Below, in pieces: positions 7,781-16,039 of a stretch of DNA of 44,661 nucleotides. Position 1 is the first letter of the stretch. Each line of letters opens with the position of its first letter. Made by a program: the position numbers and the translations under genes. The notes under the pieces were generated by a model. That model did no database searches, was not told the DNA's origin, and saw only the letters and a list, made by a program, of their open reading frames with translations. Source of the DNA: a virus (lineage: Duplodnaviria; Heunggongvirae; Uroviricota; Caudoviricetes); the IMG/VR virus record IMGVR_UViG_2654587540_000005; one strand, 5' to 3'.

Positions 7781-8164
7781 TCAGAATGGGATGGAATCGT
7801 CGTATACAGGAGTGTTCTGCTGGTTACTACTTTGCTGCTGCGGGCCATTTCCTGAAGCTGCAAATCCAATTTTTGCATTCAGTAATTCAAGAGTGATTGA
7901 TTGACCATTTTGCCCCTGATAAACATCAACCCTGATGTTTTCTCCGGTAATTTCCACAATGCCACCTTCAACAAGAACACTACGGTAGTAATCCGCTTGC
8001 GCTCCCGGCTTGGCAAATACAACGGCGCTGTAGTTTGTCCATTCTTTCTTTTTTGTCTGGCGATCGTAATACTGAACGCCAGCACGGATGTTGAATCCGA
8101 TATTTTCCCCGGCCTGAAACTCTCTTGCGGGCTTGTTTAGTCTTACAGTAATCGAATGTGCCAT
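7781..8164 (-). CDS. Phage single-stranded DNA-binding protein
   Basis: ATG at 8164 overlaps the erf stop. Glycine/glutamine-rich tail ending DDSIPF is the characteristic SSB C-terminal tail. Confidence 0.65.
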   Translation of the reverse strand: MAHSITVRLNKPAREFQAGENIGFNIRAGVQYYDRQTKKKEWTNYSAVVFAKPGAQADYYRSVLVEGGIVEITGENIRVDVYQGQNGQSITLELLNAKIGFAASGNGPQQQSSNQQNTPVYDDSIPF

Positions 8165-8769
8165 TAAGCAGCCGCTCCTTCTAATTCGTCTCGTCTGATG
8201 TTGTAAACGCCATGCGCTTTGTGCTGCTCCGGTGTGCCTTCGAGCATCTTCCACGCTTTGGCGAACGCCTGTTTAAGCTCTTCTACGGTGTTTTTCTGCA
8301 TTGCTGCGTCAGTGAATGCTTTTAGAACCTGTTCAGGTGTAGGTGATGGCTTTGATTGCTTTGCTGCTGCGTTCTGCTGATGTTTATGCTCGTCGGTATC
8401 TGCATCTTTCGCATCATCAATGCCGAATAAACCATTGAGGCAATACTTGCGTGCATAAGAGCTTGTAGCTCCAGTAACTTGTGCAGAATCCATTCCTTTC
8501 TTGCTTTCTTCCTCTCGTGCAAGAGCGGTTGCCGTATGACTGTTTTCGCCATCGGTAATAGTTGCCGTGGCTTTCACGTAATACCGATCACCAATCAACA
8601 CAACTTCATCGCTGATTGATAAAAACAGGCCATTCAGTAACGGCTTAACGCCTTCAAGAATGTCTTCGCAGCTTCTGTATTTATATTTGCCGAATGAGTT
8701 GTACTGATTCTTTGGCGCGTTCAGATTCTCCTGAATAGCTGCCAGTCTTGCGTAAAATTCTTTGCTCAT
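8164..8769 (-). CDS. erf: Erf-family single-strand annealing recombinase
   Basis: ATG at 8769 (MSKEFYARLAAIQENLNAPKNQYNSFGKYKYRSCEDILE...), the conserved Erf N-terminus. Position upstream of ssb matches P22-type recombination modules. Confidence 0.8.
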   Translation of the reverse strand: MSKEFYARLAAIQENLNAPKNQYNSFGKYKYRSCEDILEGVKPLLNGLFLSISDEVVLIGDRYYVKATATITDGENSHTATALAREEESKKGMDSAQVTGATSSYARKYCLNGLFGIDDAKDADTDEHKHQQNAAAKQSKPSPTPEQVLKAFTDAAMQKNTVEELKQAFAKAWKMLEGTPEQHKAHGVYNIRRDELEGAAA

Positions 8770-9025
8770 ATTATTGTTCTCAGAATGGACACGGCCCAAG
8801 GAAATAACGCTGATTTAATACTTCGACTCGGGACAAATTAAGGCATACCCGCATCCCTTCGCGGTCACCATTATGGCGATACCAGAGAGCTTTCTGCGTG
8901 TACATGCGTCTCTGTAACTTGCTCTCCTTCACTGTGGTTGCAAGTGACATGAATATCTCCTTCGTTACCGATTAAATCTTTCATCTGACGAATGAATTCT
9001 TCGTCTGACCAGTTATCTGTAAAAC

Positions 9026-9296: not shown

Positions 9297-9809
9297 TTAT
9301 TTGCTCCTGTAGAATTCGCCGTGATGCTTTCTGGCAAAGTCGCAGTAAGCTTTTTTGGCATCTTCTAATTCATTAAAGTACCCTAGATGTTTTTTCTTCC
9401 CGTTTAATTTCCCATAGGCAGCCCACTTTCTACTTTCCTTCTTCCATGTGACTCCTTTGCAACCTGATTTGTTGAGGGTATTTATTTTACTATTCATTGA
9501 ATTCTGTGAGTAAGTTGCAAGCCTCAGATTGCAAATTCTGTTATCTGTCTTTATGCCATTTATATGGTCGATAATACCTTCAGGCTCAACACCGAAAGTG
9601 ATAATCCATGCAAGTCTATGTGCAGCATAGTGTCTTCCGTTAATGAAAATCCTTAAGTAGCCGCTTGTTGTTATTGTTCCGGCAGTTCCACCTATCTTCC
9701 TTGCTCCATAAGATTTTAGCCATGTGAACTCACCAGAAATAGGGTTATATTTGACAACATTATTAATCTCACTTAGGGAAATTAATTCAAGAATCTTTAT
9801 AAGTGCCAT
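9297..9809 (-). CDS. HNH endonuclease with AP2-type DNA-binding domain
   Basis: HNH motif HINGIKTDNRICNLRL and AP2-like segment SGCKGVTWKKESRKWAAYGK. AT-rich; ATG at 9809. Confidence 0.8.
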   Translation of the reverse strand: MALIKILELISLSEINNVVKYNPISGEFTWLKSYGARKIGGTAGTITTSGYLRIFINGRHYAAHRLAWIITFGVEPEGIIDHINGIKTDNRICNLRLATYSQNSMNSKINTLNKSGCKGVTWKKESRKWAAYGKLNGKKKHLGYFNELEDAKKAYCDFARKHHGEFYRSK

Positions 9810-9893
9810 TTTATATCCTATCAACTGCGTTCATTAATCAGCGTTTACGCTCATGAATAAACACCTCTCGTGAAGCGTTATTGGTATGCATAT

Positions 9894-10053: not shown

Positions 10054-10305
10054 TCAGGCAGCCTTGTTGTAAATGTTGCAGGTATCAAGTAAGTAATTAG
10101 ATGGAGCGCCATAAATTATGAATTCATCGTTTGTCGGGTCCATCTCCATCTCTTGGCCTATTGCCATTCTTGCGTCAGTGTCATCAGCGGCGAAGCATAA
10201 AACAGCCCACGCACCCATTGTTTTAAACAGAACTGCAATTGGCTGTGGTTTTACTGAATTTGCGTTAGCGCGAAAATCACAAATCGCACTTTCATGAAAC
10301 TCCAT
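10054..10305 (-). CDS. Hypothetical protein
   Basis: 83 aa ORF with ATG at 10305 and a GAGGTGAG RBS. Confidence 0.5.
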   Translation of the reverse strand: MEFHESAICDFRANANSVKPQPIAVLFKTMGAWAVLCFAADDTDARMAIGQEMEMDPTNDEFIIYGAPSNYLLDTCNIYNKAA

Positions 10306-10367: not shown

Positions 10368-10592
10368 TCATAATTCACTCTTCAATACTTCCAACTTACT
10401 AATCGCCGATAGATATCCGCGCTGATAGGGCATCATCATTCCTTCGAGCTTGCCACTTCTTAACTCCTCCCTGAGCAATTGTATTGCTTGATCAATAACC
10501 TCTGCCTTAGCGTCCTTTATGGCTTGCTTGCGGGGCTTTGCTTTCTGCTTTGGCAGATTTCTCAAGCATGATGGAATGTATGTCTGATTCAT
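10368..10592 (-). CDS. Hypothetical protein downstream of N
   Basis: ATG at 10592 with a GAGGTAAG RBS, directly following the N stop. Confidence 0.5.
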   Translation of the reverse strand: MNQTYIPSCLRNLPKQKAKPRKQAIKDAKAEVIDQAIQLLREELRSGKLEGMMMPYQRGYLSAISKLEVLKSEL

Positions 10593-10595
10593 CAC

Positions 10596-10859
10596 TTACC
10601 TCGCTGTAACCTGCTTACTTGTACGATGACCAGCTGCGAAAAGCGCAACTTCTGGCAGGCAGACAGTACCACCTTCAACTTCCTTCTGAAGCGTTCCGGC
10701 AAGCGAAATGGCTTTTGTTACGCGTGTACTGCATGTGCTATTTGCTACCCGGCGCGAAAGAGAAGCGTCCTGCATTGCCTGCTCACGTTGAGCCTGTCTG
10801 CGTGCTCTGCGGCGATTTCTGGCGTTATCGTCAGCCAGATATGTAATGACTACTGTCAT
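10596..10859 (-). CDS. N: N-type transcription antitermination protein (P22 gp24-like)
   Basis: 87 aa with an arginine-rich motif (NARNRRRARRQAQREQ) near the N-terminus and a C-terminus (VTKAISLAGT.QKEVEGG...AAGHR.SKQ.TAR) matching P22 gp24. Sits immediately downstream of nutL. Confidence 0.7.
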   Translation of the reverse strand: MTVVITYLADDNARNRRRARRQAQREQAMQDASLSRRVANSTCSTRVTKAISLAGTLQKEVEGGTVCLPEVALFAAGHRTSKQVTAR

Positions 10860-10966
10860 GTTGACCTCCGATGATTGACTTTGGCGGTGACGCGCCGGGT
10901 GCTTATCTTCCGGTTGCCGTCGTGCAGCTGCACTTCACGTCACCCCAAAGCCAACTACTCTTTGGT

Positions 10967-11009
10967 TCCCGCATTTCGGCGGGACAATCCCATCAATGTT
11001 AAAGAGCCT
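10967..11009 (-). promoter_or_regulatory. nutL (boxA plus boxB)
   Basis: On the leftward transcript, boxA-like TGTTAAAGAGCC (10998..11009) is followed by a boxB hairpin at 10967..10984 whose sequence is identical to the nutR boxB. Confidence 0.6.
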
Positions 11010-11057
11010 GCCAATCTGTTCCGTTTGGCTTCCAGCGTCCTGCTGATGGCTAAAGAA

Positions 11058-11095
11058 TACTGTAGGTATTTTATTGTGTAAATACCCAAGGTATT
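11058..11095. promoter_or_regulatory. oL operator sites / pL region
   Basis: Two 13-bp ATAC-N5-GTAT palindromes (atactgtaggtat, atacccaaggtat) and a possible degenerate third at 11127..11139, matching the oR sites. Confidence 0.55.
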
Positions 11096-11226
11096 TATTT
11101 TTGGTGAAATAATGATAAGCAAATGAATACAAAGGATATTTATTTTTTCGGTGTCTGCTTGTTCAGTGTTTTTTATGCGGGATATGTGAAGTGGATCCCG
11201 ATAGCTATTGCTGCCGGGATTATGGG

Positions 11227-11595
11227 TTAGTCAGCGAAGGTTAAGACGAGAATTACCTTAATGATGTCTGCTACAACAGACACAGCCATAGATAAACCAA
11301 AGACGATCCAAGCCATAGAGATGTCTTCACTACCATCGTATAGCGTTCCGTAATCACTGGTGTAAGGCGTAAATGTCGCGCCTTGATACAACAGGTATAA
11401 GCTTGAACCATAGAGGATAAATGCAGATATCCCTTGTATTGCTATGATCACCAGAATCATGAAACGAGCTGATCTATGCGCCCAAGCCTGGCTTATTTTT
11501 TCTGATAGAGATTTCGCAATAAAAGCATGCGCTAAGCCGTAAATTGTCGAGATTGCCAACATCCCAAAAAAGCTTGATATAGCGGTTCCAACCAT
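11227..11595 (-). CDS. Small polytopic membrane protein at the rexAB position
   Basis: ATG at 11595 with an AAGGGG RBS, 18 nt downstream of the cI stop and co-oriented. Three to four predicted TM segments; no similarity to lambda RexB noticed. Confidence 0.6.
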   Translation of the reverse strand: MVGTAISSFFGMLAISTIYGLAHAFIAKSLSEKISQAWAHRSARFMILVIIAIQGISAFILYGSSLYLLYQGATFTPYTSDYGTLYDGSEDISMAWIVFGLSMAVSVVADIIKVILVLTFAD

Positions 11596-11612
11596 AATCG
11601 CCCCTTGCGTGA

Positions 11613-12329
11613 TCAAACCAGCCTTAGTTTTGTCTCAATTGCAACGCCTATAATCTTGCAGTTTCCATTGATTGGCACGAGAGGCCATGCAGGATTAAGT
11701 CCCTTGAGGTATTTATTTCCGCCGTCGATTATCAGCTTCTTGAATGTTGCTTCGTTAGAGTCAGAAAGTTTTGCTATGACCAAGCTGCCGTTGATCGCCT
11801 CCCTTCCGGTATCGAAAAGAACGAATGTTCCCTCTGGAATGCTTAACCCAACCGGTGCCGTCATTGAATCACCTTCCACTTTAAGCCAGAACGCATTACC
11901 TTGAATATGCGCGTCAGACTCAAGCCAAACATCTATGTCTTTAATGGTGTATGGTTCGCATGCTTCACACCACGAGCCAGCCTGGATACTGCTTAACACC
12001 GGATACCTCTTTCCTGCTCTGTATTCCCCTGCATACCTTACGTTGGCATCGCTCTTAAGGCTTTCTGCCTGTTCTGCAACCTTGGCAGCAATTGACTGGC
12101 TAAAATCAGCAATTGAGACTTGCAACAAACGTGCAAAACCAGATGCGACCTCAACGTTTAGCGCGTTTCTGCCATTAAGATAATGCCCTACCGCTCCTTG
12201 GGTGATACCCAGTTCATCAGCGATTGAGTATTGGGTTATTCCCAATTCTTTCTTTTTTGACTCATACAAAGCCTTAAGCCGCTTAGCGTCTTCGAGCTGT
12301 TCTGTCGTCAGTGATTTTTTATTTTCCAT
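11613..12329 (-). CDS. cI: CI-type prophage repressor (HTH plus S24 LexA-like peptidase domain)
   Basis: 238 aa; N-terminal HTH with the lambda-cI-like pattern TTEQLEDAKRLKALYE, C-terminal autocleavage domain (EGDSM...FKKLI). Confidence 0.9.
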   Translation of the reverse strand: MENKKSLTTEQLEDAKRLKALYESKKKELGITQYSIADELGITQGAVGHYLNGRNALNVEVASGFARLLQVSIADFSQSIAAKVAEQAESLKSDANVRYAGEYRAGKRYPVLSSIQAGSWCEACEPYTIKDIDVWLESDAHIQGNAFWLKVEGDSMTAPVGLSIPEGTFVLFDTGREAINGSLVIAKLSDSNEATFKKLIIDGGNKYLKGLNPAWPLVPINGNCKIIGVAIETKLRLV

Positions 12330-12365
12330 AGCTTAATTCTAATAGCTAAGGTACTTAAACTAAAA

Positions 12366-12403
12366 ATACCCTGAGTATTGATTGCTTTGAATACCTGTAG
12401 TAT
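12366..12403. promoter_or_regulatory. oR operator sites with divergent pRM/pR
   Basis: Two 13-bp ATAC-N5-GTAT palindromes (ataccctgagtat, atacctgtagtat) between the divergent cI and cro starts. Confidence 0.6.
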
Positions 12404-12435
12404 TCTTTGTTCATGGTTAATAACGGAGAGTGCAT

Positions 12436-12630
12436 ATGATTCGAATGACACTTGCCGATTACGCCAAAATCCATGGACAGGCTAAAGCAGCCAGTGACTT
12501 TGGTGTAATCCAGTGCGCTATCAGCAAGGCCATTCTGGCAGGCCGTAACATCATGGTTACGGTAAAGCCTGATGGCAGTGTGATTGGAGAGGAAGTTCGT
12601 CCTTTCCCAAGCAACAAGAAAAACAAATAG
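12436..12630 (+). CDS. cro: Cro repressor
   Basis: ATG at 12436 (the ORF track begins at a GTG at 12430). Close to lambda Cro (..DYA...GQ.K.A.D.GV.Q.AI.KAI.AGR.I...DGSV..EEV.PFPSNKK). Confidence 0.85.
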
Positions 12631-12636
12631 TAACAC

Positions 12637-12679
12637 CGCTCTTTAACAGTCATGGTCATCATTCCCGCCGAAATGCGGG
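12637..12679 (+). promoter_or_regulatory. nutR (boxA plus boxB)
   Basis: boxA CGCTCTTTAACA (12637..12648) followed by a boxB hairpin (stem CCCGC/GCGGG, 12664..12679). Confidence 0.65.
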
Positions 12680-12738
12680 AATACAACGCGCATAATTTGA
12701 TGCGCATAACTTCTTATTTGTTAAGGAAATACTTACAT

Positions 12739-13017
12739 ATGCAACTTACAAGTACTCGCAAGAAAGCGAATGCAATTACAAGCAACATCCTGAATCGAAT
12801 TGCTGTACGTGGTCAGCGAAAGGTTGCCGACGCGTTAGGGATTAATGAATCGCAAATTTCGCGATGGAAAGATAGCTTCATCCCCAAAATGGGAATGCTT
12901 CTGGCTGTTCTTGAATGGGGTGTTGAAGACGAGGAGTTGGCGGAACTGGCTAAGAAAGTAGCCAGAATGCTGACAAAAGAAAAAGCCCCGAAGAACGGCG
13001 AATTCTTCGAGGCCTGA
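12739..13017 (+). CDS. cII: CII transcriptional activator
   Basis: ATG at 12739 with an AAGGA RBS. Matches lambda CII (…SQISRWK…[14 protein letters not shown]…). Confidence 0.85.
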
Positions 13018-14158: not shown

Positions 14159-16039
14159 ATGAGGCCAAGTGAACTTAGCGACCTGCTTTGGGCGCAGGTT
14201 GACAGGGTGGCTCCGCACCTGTTGCCAAATGGCAAGAAAGAGGGGCATGAGTGGGTTGCCGGTAACGTCAACGGTGACAAGGGAAACAGCCTTAAGGTCA
14301 ACCTTAGCGGCAAGAAAAAATGGGCTGATTTCGCTGAGGGAGACGGCGGTGACATGCTTGATTTGTGGATGGCATGTCGTGGAATTAACCTGCATCAGGC
14401 TATGCAGGAAGCGAAAGCATTTCTCGGTATCAAGGATGACGATCACCATTTCGATGCCAGACGTGAGAAGAAATTCTCCAGACCTGATCGCAAGAAAATC
14501 GCCCGCTACGTTACCAGAACAGAATCCCATCTTGAGTACCTGCAATCGCGTGGCATATCGCCAGAAGTCGTAAAGCGCTACGAGGTTGTCAGCGGCAAGG
14601 TGTGGAATGGAGAACGAGAACTGGATGCTCTGGTGCTTCCGTACAAACGCGATGGTGAGTTGTTGCAGGTCAAGCGAATCAGCACTGAGCGCCCGGACGG
14701 GAAGAAAGTCATTATGGCAGAAGGTGATTGCGAACCTTGTCTGTTCGGATGGCAGGCTCTGGACGCTGGCGTGAGGGCGGTTGTACTTTGCGAAGGCGAA
14801 ATTGATTGTATGAGCTATGCGCAATATGGCATCTCGGCGTTATCCGTGCCGTTTGGTGGCGGGAAAGGAGCTAAACAGCAGTGGATTGAGTTTGAGTATC
14901 ACAACCTCGACAGGTTTGAGGAAATATTCATCTCGATGGACGTTGATGATGTTGGTCGTGAAGCCGCAAGGGAAATCGCAAGCCGACTCGGTGAACATCG
15001 TTGCCGTCTTGTTACTCTGCCGTACAAAGACATCAACGAATGCCTGATGAACGGTGTTACCGAGGATGAAATCTGGCAGTACATCGGCACGGCATCCTAC
15101 TTCGATCCTGAAGAACTCTACAGCGCGCGAGAGTTTTACCAGGACACTATCAACGCTTTCTACGGCAAGCAGCAGTATCTGTTTAATCCACCGTGGGAAT
15201 CTCTGGCAGATAAATTCCAGTTCCGTGAGGCCGAGTTGACGCTGGTCAATGGTGTGAACGGTCACGGAAAAACGGAGGTTGTCGGGCATATGGCACTTGA
15301 GGCAATGCGTCAGGGTGTGAAGACGTGCATCGCGTCACTTGAGCTGAAGCCTGGTATTCTCCTTAAGCGCCTTACCCGTCAGGCGACGTGCTGCAAGATG
15401 CCGCCAGTGCTGGAAATTGACTCTGCATTTAAATTTTATGACGAAAGACTTTGGGTGTTTGGCCTGACCGGAACGGCGAAAGCCGACAGGCTGATCGAAA
15501 TATTCGACTACGCTCGCCGCCGATACGGCATCCAGTTATTCATTATCGACAGCCTGATGAAATGTGGCATAGGCGACGATGACTATAACGGGCAGAAGGC
15601 GTTTGTTGACTCGATTTGCGACTTCAAAAACAAAACAAACTCCCACGTCATTCTCGTTACTCACTCGCGAAAAGGAGACAGCGAAGAAAAACCAACCGGG
15701 AAAATGGACGTAAAAGGCTCTGGAGCGATAACAGACCTGACAGACAACCTTTTCATCATCTGGCGTAACAAGGCTCGCGAGAGAGCGTTACAGAGAGTTC
15801 AGAGTGGTGAAAAGATGTCAGAGAAGGACGAACAGCTACTGGCATCTCCGGCATCTGTTTTGATGCTTGAAAAACAACGTAACGGTGAAGGTTGGGAAGG
15901 TGGTGTCCCGTTGTTCCTTGACGAGCAATCGCACCAGTTCCTGCAACTTGAATCAGGATCGCCATATAGCTACATCGCCAATATGCCGAAATCGGAATAT
16001 GACGAGGCGTGGCGACAGGAAAACGTGACAGAGTATTAA
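14159..16039 (+). CDS. Bifunctional Toprim primase / RecA-fold helicase
   Basis: 626 aa with ATG at 14159 and a GAGGGA RBS. Toprim signatures (VVLCEGEIDCMSYAQYG, ISMDVDDVGREAA), Walker A GVNGHGKT and Walker B LFIIDSL. Confidence 0.75.
   Translation: MRPSELSDLLWAQVDRVAPHLLPNGKKEGHEWVAGNVNGDKGNSLKVNLSGKKKWADFAEGDGGDMLDLWMACRGINLHQAMQEAKAFLGIKDDDHHFDARREKKFSRPDRKKIARYVTRTESHLEYLQSRGISPEVVKRYEVVSGKVWNGERELDALVLPYKRDGELLQVKRISTERPDGKKVIMAEGDCEPCLFGWQALDAGVRAVVLCEGEIDCMSYAQYGISALSVPFGGGKGAKQQWIEFEYHNLDRFEEIFISMDVDDVGREAAREIASRLGEHRCRLVTLPYKDINECLMNGVTEDEIWQYIGTASYFDPEELYSAREFYQDTINAFYGKQQYLFNPPWESLADKFQFREAELTLVNGVNGHGKTEVVGHMALEAMRQGVKTCIASLELKPGILLKRLTRQATCCKMPPVLEIDSAFKFYDERLWVFGLTGTAKADRLIEIFDYARRRYGIQLFIIDSLMKCGIGDDDYNGQKAFVDSICDFKNKTNSHVILVTHSRKGDSEEKPTGKMDVKGSGAITDLTDNLFIIWRNKARERALQRVQSGEKMSEKDEQLLASPASVLMLEKQRNGEGWEGGVPLFLDEQSHQFLQLESGSPYSYIANMPKSEYDEAWRQENVTEY

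Follow-up and report, generated by a model that had tools for sequence, protein, structure and literature searches.

The locus between the repressor gene cI and the antiterminator gene N of lambdoid phages raises a simple question each time a new gene is found there: does the gene protect the lysogen? Defence systems have come repeatedly from this slot, with RexAB, Hex, Stk and BstA as examples, and Nun is another defence gene of the same interval. The interval has been described as a mosaic hotspot of lysogen-expressed accessory and exclusion genes (rexAB, hex, stk, bstA), and these characterised genes, co-transcribed with a lambdoid cI, all exclude other phages (PMC3564112; PMC7067206; PMC8585504). 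Here we ask what is done by a 122-residue membrane protein encoded directly downstream of cI in a 44,661-nucleotide stretch of tailed-phage DNA (IMG/VR record IMGVR_UViG_2654587540_000005; hereafter, the window). A sequence-only reading of the window had placed this gene in the position of lambda rexAB, and the locus bears this out: the gene is on the same strand as cI, directly 3′ of it, and before oL/pL, that is, in the exclusion-gene hotspot. We identify it as hkaS and propose, with a probability of roughly 0.5, that HkaS is an unrecognised single-gene anti-phage system that would be expressed from the repressor promoter, is unrelated to known defence, superinfection exclusion (Sie), abortive infection (Abi) or holin families, and would protect lysogens from heterologous phages by an entry block or by membrane-level abortive infection.

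The gene is hkaS of an HK620-type immunity module

Over a 791-bp stretch of the window (10860-11650), the immunity regions of phages HK620, HK630, mEpX2, HF4s, HK140, phi296 and phi367 show 98.2-98.7% identity, and two Stx2c-converting phages match it as well. The GenBank record of HK620 names the open reading frame (ORF) at this place hkaS (AAK28867.1, product 'unknown') and shows it between cI and the terminator tIMM, the operators OL3-OL1, pL and nutL, and the HK630 record labels the same ORF 'HkaS protein'. The window protein has the same length as HK620 HkaS and is 97% identical to it (98% DNA identity over the hkaS region), differing by a few substitutions such as S7 (A7 in most copies), and the window cI protein is essentially identical to that of HK620 in amino acid sequence (pN 0.002). 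PHROG 6534, a family of unknown function, is matched end to end (E = 9.4e-79, residues 1-122 against profile positions 1-122 of 122). By these sequence matches, the window gene is the hkaS ortholog of an HK620-type immunity module; its sequence is not new, having been catalogued since 2001, in the HK620 genome paper, with a function field that reads 'unknown'.

The gene occupies positions 11227-11595 on the (-) strand, as supported by the ORF list, PHROG 6534, the ratio of non-synonymous to synonymous substitution rates (dN/dS), AlphaFold2 (AF2) and hydropathy, and encodes a predicted inner-membrane protein of 122 amino acids (aa). Upstream of it lies the gene for the 238-aa cI repressor (11613-12329, (-) strand; HTH_3 and Peptidase_S24 domains by Pfam, and HK620 annotation), the first gene of a presumed pRM/pRE operon, and the far edge of the cI-to-N slot is marked by the N antiterminator gene (10596-10859, (-) strand; Pfam N_peptide, E = 1e-16; PHROG 271), the first gene of the pL operon. 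As listed, the ORF runs from 11616 to 11227 and would give a 129-aa product from a TTG codon that overlaps the cI stop codon (TGA, 11615-11613). We place the start at the ATG at 11595 instead, because Salmonella-type loci have an in-frame TAA directly 5′ of their ATG and a ribosome-binding site at the matching position, and the 129-aa version from TTG 11616 was dropped on account of this upstream stop. The 17-nt spacer between cI and hkaS (TCACGCAAGGGGCGATT) makes the ATG the 18th base after the cI stop codon, a small correction to the 18 nt read from the sequence beforehand. It also holds the ribosome-binding site claimed at that stage, a Shine-Dalgarno motif AAGGGG (11601-11606, (-) strand) found by inspection 5 nt 5′ of the ATG, and an AAGGA/AGGGA box occupies the equivalent place in Salmonella-type and Hafnia-type loci. 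At its other end the gene stops at 11227, before the leftward operators and pL (11054-11141) and before N (10596-10859), so that this part of the sequence-only reading holds too.

hkaS is a real coding gene and the more polymorphic half of its module

Homologs from E. coli, Hafnia paralvei, Salmonella enterica, Enterobacter and metagenomes are exactly 122 aa long, down to 55% identity, and share 56 invariant positions. HkaS of the window is 82% identical in amino acids to the Hafnia type, with a dN/dS of 0.14, and the Hafnia type is 59% identical to the Salmonella type, with a dN/dS of 0.2. Since purifying selection of this strength is expected of a protein-coding sequence, and not of a chance ORF, we conclude that hkaS is a real coding gene. 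The opposite view, namely that the ORF is a spurious or non-functional hydrophobic frame within the 3′ untranslated region of the cI mRNA, could appeal to the lack of a family annotation, to database names for family members that read 'hypothetical protein' throughout, and to the few entries that are frameshifted or truncated (P0004, P0005, P0007-P0009), but it is very hard to square with a low dN/dS over saturated synonymous divergence, with a fixed length and invariant residues, and with a conserved ribosome-binding site and a confidently predicted fold; we consider it highly improbable.

Synonymous divergence is alike in hkaS and the adjacent cI (dS 0.69 versus 0.76), which indicates that the two genes diverged together, and non-synonymous change is ∼4-fold faster in hkaS. 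The same asymmetry appears within E. coli: measured against the window copy, 141 of the 146 carrier genomes have a cI that is at least 99% identical, whereas hkaS reaches at least 99% in a single one and is 95-99% identical in the rest. In the 90% identity cluster to which HkaS belongs there are 525 distinct sequences. hkaS is thus clearly the more polymorphic half of the cI-hkaS module, and the window allele, with S7, is a minority variant.

HkaS is predicted to span the inner membrane three times

Hydropathy analysis shows three hydrophobic segments in HkaS, and AF2, run on a six-sequence family alignment, gives a confident model (mean predicted local distance difference test score [pLDDT] 91.4, predicted template modelling score [pTM] 0.78) with helices at residues 2-29, 41-74 and 89-121, a short helix at 31-38 and a β-hairpin at about 77-86. 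HkaS is thus predicted to be a polytopic protein of the inner membrane with three transmembrane (TM) helices; of the three to four helices suggested earlier from the sequence, three are retained by both hydropathy and AF2, and the fourth is not. The first loop carries K28, K33, R41 and R44 and the second D81, D87, E90 and D91, and by the positive-inside rule the former would be cytoplasmic and the latter periplasmic, giving a predicted N-out/C-in topology. Helices 2 and 3 exceed the length needed to cross the bilayer and therefore should extend, together with the hairpin, into the periplasm, and the C-terminus comes 1-2 residues after helix 3 (...LVLTFAD).

Conservation is concentrated in three parts of the protein: the cytoplasmic amphipathic helix LS.KI.Q.W.H, with 82-91% identity to Salmonella-type homologs; a Tyr-rich motif in the periplasmic loop, YLLYQGATF.PY.S.YG..Y.G; and the end of helix 3, with the invariant residues D110 and K113. 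The sequences of TM1 and TM2 drift, and the polar or charged residues that are invariant within the helices are Q54, S106, D110 and K113.

A separate observation concerns loop residues 71-96 (approximately 11308-11385 of the window, (-) strand; QGATFTPYTSDYGTLYDGSEDISMAW), which give a profile match to a 5,949-aa YD-repeat (Rhs-like) protein, P0014 (its residues 4028-4055, E = 2.8e-7, nine matched stretches). This suggests that the periplasmic loop may resemble a YD-repeat β-hairpin, although the likeness lacks Pfam RHS_repeat support and could be compositional.

HkaS is an orphan family

A word-indexed search of 5.8 billion proteins returned 11 clusters, each at least 55% identical to HkaS, and a profile hidden Markov model (HMM) search of 1.84 billion representatives at 50% identity returned one full-length protein, one fragment and the YD-repeat giant that matches the loop alone. 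Within the reach of these searches, HkaS forms an orphan family, with no relatives detected outside it. No Pfam or NCBIfam model matched above threshold, and a fold comparison against viral proteins gave no match at E ≤ 0.001; no fold match was informative. The sub-cutoff hits (Cation_ATPase_C, 18.9 bits against a cutoff of 27.3; TssN; DHHC; and the TIGR01593 holin profile, 12.9 against 40.2) were set aside as hydrophobic bias. The profile search for Abi and holin families that had been put forward as a check was thus run, and no Abi, defence or holin family was matched; in particular, there was no Pfam or PHROG holin match, and the TIGR01593 hit (E = 0.08) came from the Salmonella homolog and not from the window protein.

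hkaS is inherited as a unit with one type of cI

Loci were fetched by exact-protein look-up, which gave 12 with flanking sequence and a 13th, a 1,173-bp contig (L013) that shows cI followed by hkaS and nothing further. All 12 flanked loci, from E. coli, Hafnia, Salmonella and metagenomes, have the order cro (divergent), cI, hkaS, operators and pL, N, with a cI-hkaS gap of 17-20 nt across loci. Around this constant core, the loci differ in their type of N, in replication genes (O/P, DnaB or primase-helicase) and in recombination genes (Erf, RecT or Rad52). The cI proteins of the hkaS loci are 84-100% identical to that of the window, and the region of the recognition helix is unchanged. Among 5,426 complete E. 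coli genomes, hkaS is present in 146 (147 places), as is cI (146 genomes, 147 places), in all cases on the chromosome (∼2.7%), and cI and hkaS are adjacent wherever both occur among the matches listed. hkaS is strictly linked to one cI type and inherited as a unit with it. Because the module is present both in podovirus HK620 (Lederbergvirus) and in siphovirus HK630 (Lambdavirus), and also in Stx phages, hkaS is a fixed passenger of one immunity type with no tie to a type of virion.

Perfect linkage to a single cI type is what would be expected of a cI-specific partner, and HkaS might accordingly serve the prophage's own lifestyle, by tuning lysogen stability or induction, or by altering host membrane physiology (stress tolerance, transport or the envelope). 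There are precedents in the same slot, as Hex of phage 434 shields its own repressor from RecA-stimulated cleavage (PMC3564112), and RexA and RexB are reported to assist the lysogenic-to-lytic transition (10.1101/2021.04.19.439022); in HkaS itself, the conserved amphipathic helix on the cytoplasmic face could serve as a docking site for a partner in the cytoplasm. However, adjacency within a 1.1-kb module explains the linkage equally well, an integral membrane protein that exposes some 15 residues to the cytoplasm is unlikely to regulate a DNA-bound repressor directly, and tight co-adaptation of the two proteins is not evident, given the ∼4-fold faster non-synonymous change in hkaS. We regard a lifestyle role as unlikely; if it were true, HkaS would be a Hex or Rex counterpart located in the membrane.

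hkaS is likely the second gene of the cI operon

The 17-nt gap between cI and hkaS is too small to house a promoter or a terminator, and a consensus scan of the interval predicted none of either. Co-transcription of the two genes is the simplest reading of this anatomy, for which cI-hex (434) and cI-bstA (BTP1) are precedents, and we consider it likely. In the model we propose, hkaS would be the second cistron of an operon headed by cI, which would be read from pRM in lysogens and from pRE while lysogeny is being established.

The signals around the two genes are of the lambda kind. The 17-bp operators OR3 (12340-12356), OR2 (12364-12380) and OR1 (12389-12405), of the form AATAC-N5-GTATT, and the leftward operators OL2 (11080-11096) and OL1 (11055-11071), both on the (-) strand, were located by mapping the HK620 annotation and with a position weight matrix (PWM) trained on five operators. 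The leftward promoter pL (-35 TTTACA, 11082-11077; -10 TATTCT, 11059-11054; (-) strand) is found by HK620 annotation and by promoter scan, and it is the sole consensus promoter in the region. The consensus scan missed the putative pRM, for which a -10 box, TAGAAT (12336-12341, (-) strand), can be read from the sequence 6 nt 5′ of the cI ATG; its -35 is poor and abuts OR2, and its -10 lies beside OR3. This arrangement suggests a lambda-like, activator-dependent pRM that would produce a leaderless cI-hkaS mRNA.

Downstream of hkaS, the sequence-only reading had noted no terminator hairpin between the stop codon and oL. A stable hairpin does exist there: the stem-loop AUCCCGG.AGC-AAUA-GCU.UCGGGAU (11195-11220, (-) strand) begins 7 nt past the hkaS stop (-13.7 kcal/mol, z = -3.55). 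What stands of the claim is that the hairpin has no U-tract and that a consensus scan 3′ of hkaS on the (-) strand finds no intrinsic terminator. A stem-loop follows the hkaS stop in the E. coli, Hafnia and Salmonella versions (window 11195-11220, L009 1832-1859, L003 5381-5421), in no case with a proper U-tract. In the Hafnia type it is kept, with a structure-preserving G-U to A-U change and an altered loop, and in the Salmonella type an unrelated hairpin (-18.5 kcal/mol) sits at the equivalent place. The element at 11195-11220 may be a stabiliser of the 3′ end, a non-canonical terminator without a U-tract, or a processing site.

Further toward N, the HK620 record (AF335538.1 7888-7931; L001 2743-2786; window 11102-11145) places OL3 at 11102-11118 and the terminator tIMM at 11115-11145. 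The annotated OL3 (TTATCATTATTTCACCA) bears no resemblance to the other operators, and conservation from locus to locus is lacking. Inside tIMM, an operator-like 17-mer at 11125-11141 (AAATATCCTTTGTATTC; PWM score 12.35) is the seventh PWM site in the window and the second-best outside the training operators, after 15444-15460, and it is invariant in nine of nine aligned immunity regions. This sequence evidence marks it as a candidate for the true OL3, and it is probably a real third leftward operator, 45 bp from OL2 rather than ∼24 bp.

A 35-aa, very hydrophobic ORF on the (+) strand (MNTKDIYFFGVCLFSVFYAGYVKWIPIAIAAGIMG, 11123-11230), convergent with hkaS, starts inside this operator-like site and overlaps the hkaS stop codon. 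The possibility that it encodes a small toxin or a partner was rejected, since alignment shows its frame broken after ∼10-12 codons in Salmonella-type and Hafnia-type loci. An Rfam scan of 10500-12800 gave nothing credible, and svsR, a small RNA (sRNA) described from the cI 3′ end of a different prophage, has no demonstrated link to hkaS.

The rest of the window belongs to a P22-like mosaic phage or prophage, a different mosaic from HK620. In the window, the genes around hkaS are cro, cII, O and those for a primase-helicase, Erf and an HNH endonuclease. Directly 3′ of N, two small ORFs of 75 and 83 aa (10368-10595 and 10054-10305, both (-) strand), with no Pfam match, take the place of HK620 hkaQ and the oppositely oriented, sieB-like hkaP. 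Between these N-proximal ORFs and the Erf recombinase gene (8164-8799), a 175-aa homing-endonuclease-like gene with HNH_3 and AP2 domains (9297-9824, (-) strand) is inserted in the early-left operon.

HkaS may exclude superinfecting phages at the inner membrane

That HkaS has an exclusion role of some kind, protecting the lysogen from other phages, is in our estimate somewhat better than an even bet, by analogy with rexAB, hex, stk and bstA. A specific mechanism is harder to support. The best single candidate is an entry block, which we hold tentatively, at well short of even odds, and favour because HkaS stands alone as a membrane protein and its conserved exposed part is predicted to face the periplasm. 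In such a scheme, HkaS would act at the inner membrane and interfere with genome entry of a superinfecting phage, its periplasmic hairpin knob of helices 2 and 3 binding either an inner-membrane component of the host that serves in DNA entry or, on the phage side, the ejection or tape-measure apparatus as it arrives, with SieA of P22 and gp15 of HK97 as models for its mode of action.

Several results weigh against this proposal. None of the defence models in PADLOC-DB 2.0 matched HkaS at E ≤ 10, and a PHROG scan at E ≤ 1 returned phrog_6534 and one chance hit (0.37), with no SieA, gp15 or Imm family. A profile comparison with RexB (hhalign) gave a probability of 0.3% (E = 0.23 over 12 columns), and there was no RexB hit in PHROG or Pfam. 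In the library of papers searched, none mentioned hkaS and HK620 together. The known injection blockers directed at their own type of virion are encoded by genes linked to virion or immI genes, whereas hkaS is linked to cI across virion types, and a cytoplasmic or generic target would explain this at least as well as an entry block does. The periplasmic knob is strongly conserved, unlike what would be seen in an arms race with variable phage proteins, which suggests a conserved host partner. Finally, the predicted structure leaves HkaS almost no cytoplasmic mass with which to sense an infection.

Some of these results also bear on a RexB-like mode of abortive infection, in which HkaS would be an oligomeric channel or membrane-perturbing effector, silent in the lysogen until triggered by superinfection, that collapses the membrane potential without a RexA partner. 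HkaS shares slot and operon position with rexAB, is a polytopic membrane protein of nearly the size of RexB, and has invariant helix residues (Q54, S106, D110 and K113) that could line a pore or mediate oligomerisation; its three predicted TM helices and predicted N-out/C-in topology resemble those of class I holins. Yet the profile comparison shows no sequence relation to RexB, in agreement with the dissimilarity noted by eye in the sequence-only reading, HkaS matches no holin or Abi family in Pfam or PHROG and nothing in PADLOC, and the faint TIGR01593 hit of one homolog lies far under its cutoff and is absent for the window protein. A partner gene is missing as well, as had also been noted at first (17 nt between cI and hkaS, no conserved ORF from hkaS to oL), and hardly any cytoplasmic domain is available for sensing. 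We consider this mode doubtful, and place it on a par with a lifestyle role and below the entry block that we prefer; some other role altogether is a further alternative.

Even so, hkaS is a reasonable candidate for a widespread and tractable defence gene in a well-known kind of locus. The module whose cI-to-N slot it fills is carried by 146 of 5,426 complete E. coli genomes and by HK620, HK630, mEpX2 and Stx2c-converting phages, and occurs in Salmonella, Hafnia and Enterobacter as well. The gene has stood without functional annotation for 25 years and without detectable relatives. Were phage exclusion confirmed, HkaS would add a minimal membrane-embedded defence protein and a new fold family, of relevance to the host range of therapeutic phages and to the ecology of Stx phages. 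The question is tractable by simple K-12 genetics, as HK630 and mEpX2 grow on laboratory strains.

Comparison with known systems

HK620 hkaS, orthologous, of equal length and at the same place between cI and oL, shows no substantive difference from the window gene. Of the proteins that HkaS recalls by shape, class I holins (e.g., lambda S105) have about 100-130 aa, three TM helices, an N-out/C-in topology and a charged cytoplasmic C-terminal tail, and are encoded in the lysis cassette. HkaS is like them in size, number of TM helices and predicted topology; it differs in having neither the charged C-terminal tail nor a dual-start motif, in its location in the immunity operon, and in giving no holin match above threshold.

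By position, the nearest likeness is to lambda RexB, which is also a small polytopic inner-membrane protein and whose gene lies in the immunity operon between cI and oL/pL. RexB has four TM helices; it is 144 aa long, as against the 122 aa and three predicted TM helices of HkaS, and the two share no sequence similarity. With no gene in the 17-nt gap to cI, hkaS also lacks the RexA-like sensor gene of rexAB. RexB is expressed in lysogens (PMC3564112; PMC7067206; PMC8585504), as we propose for HkaS.

By mode of action, the models would be SieA and gp15. The sieA gene lies in immI and the gene for gp15 among tail genes, each linked to the virion type that it excludes. In contrast, hkaS is linked to cI and moves between podoviruses and siphoviruses, and it has no sequence match to either (PHROG 6534 is the sole hit at E ≤ 0.1). 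The likeness is one of design: P22 SieA and HK97 gp15 are small, prophage-expressed inner-membrane injection blockers that need no partner gene (PMC10883804), and HkaS is likewise small, predicted to be in the inner membrane, and without a partner gene.

Two further systems share the genetic arrangement but not the kind of protein. Hex of phage 434 is the second cistron of a pRM-cI operon, as shown by reverse transcription PCR (RT-PCR), is toxic when over-expressed and excludes heterologous phage; its ORF has 158 aa, and the active fragment, which has been purified, is a soluble peptide with an effect on repressor cleavage (PMC3564112). HkaS, likewise the second gene of a cI operon by our reading, is set apart from Hex, by description, as a predicted integral membrane protein. 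BstA of BTP1 is reported to localise to sites of phage DNA replication in the cytoplasm and to carry an internal anti-BstA DNA element (PMC7067206; PMC8585504), whereas HkaS is a 122-aa predicted membrane protein with no PADLOC match. The arrangement itself is the same in both, for bstA too is a single accessory gene directly 3′ of the repressor gene, in a P22-like prophage; RNA sequencing (RNA-seq) shows that the cI promoter drives it, and the same layout is conserved in different hosts (PMC7067206; PMC8585504).

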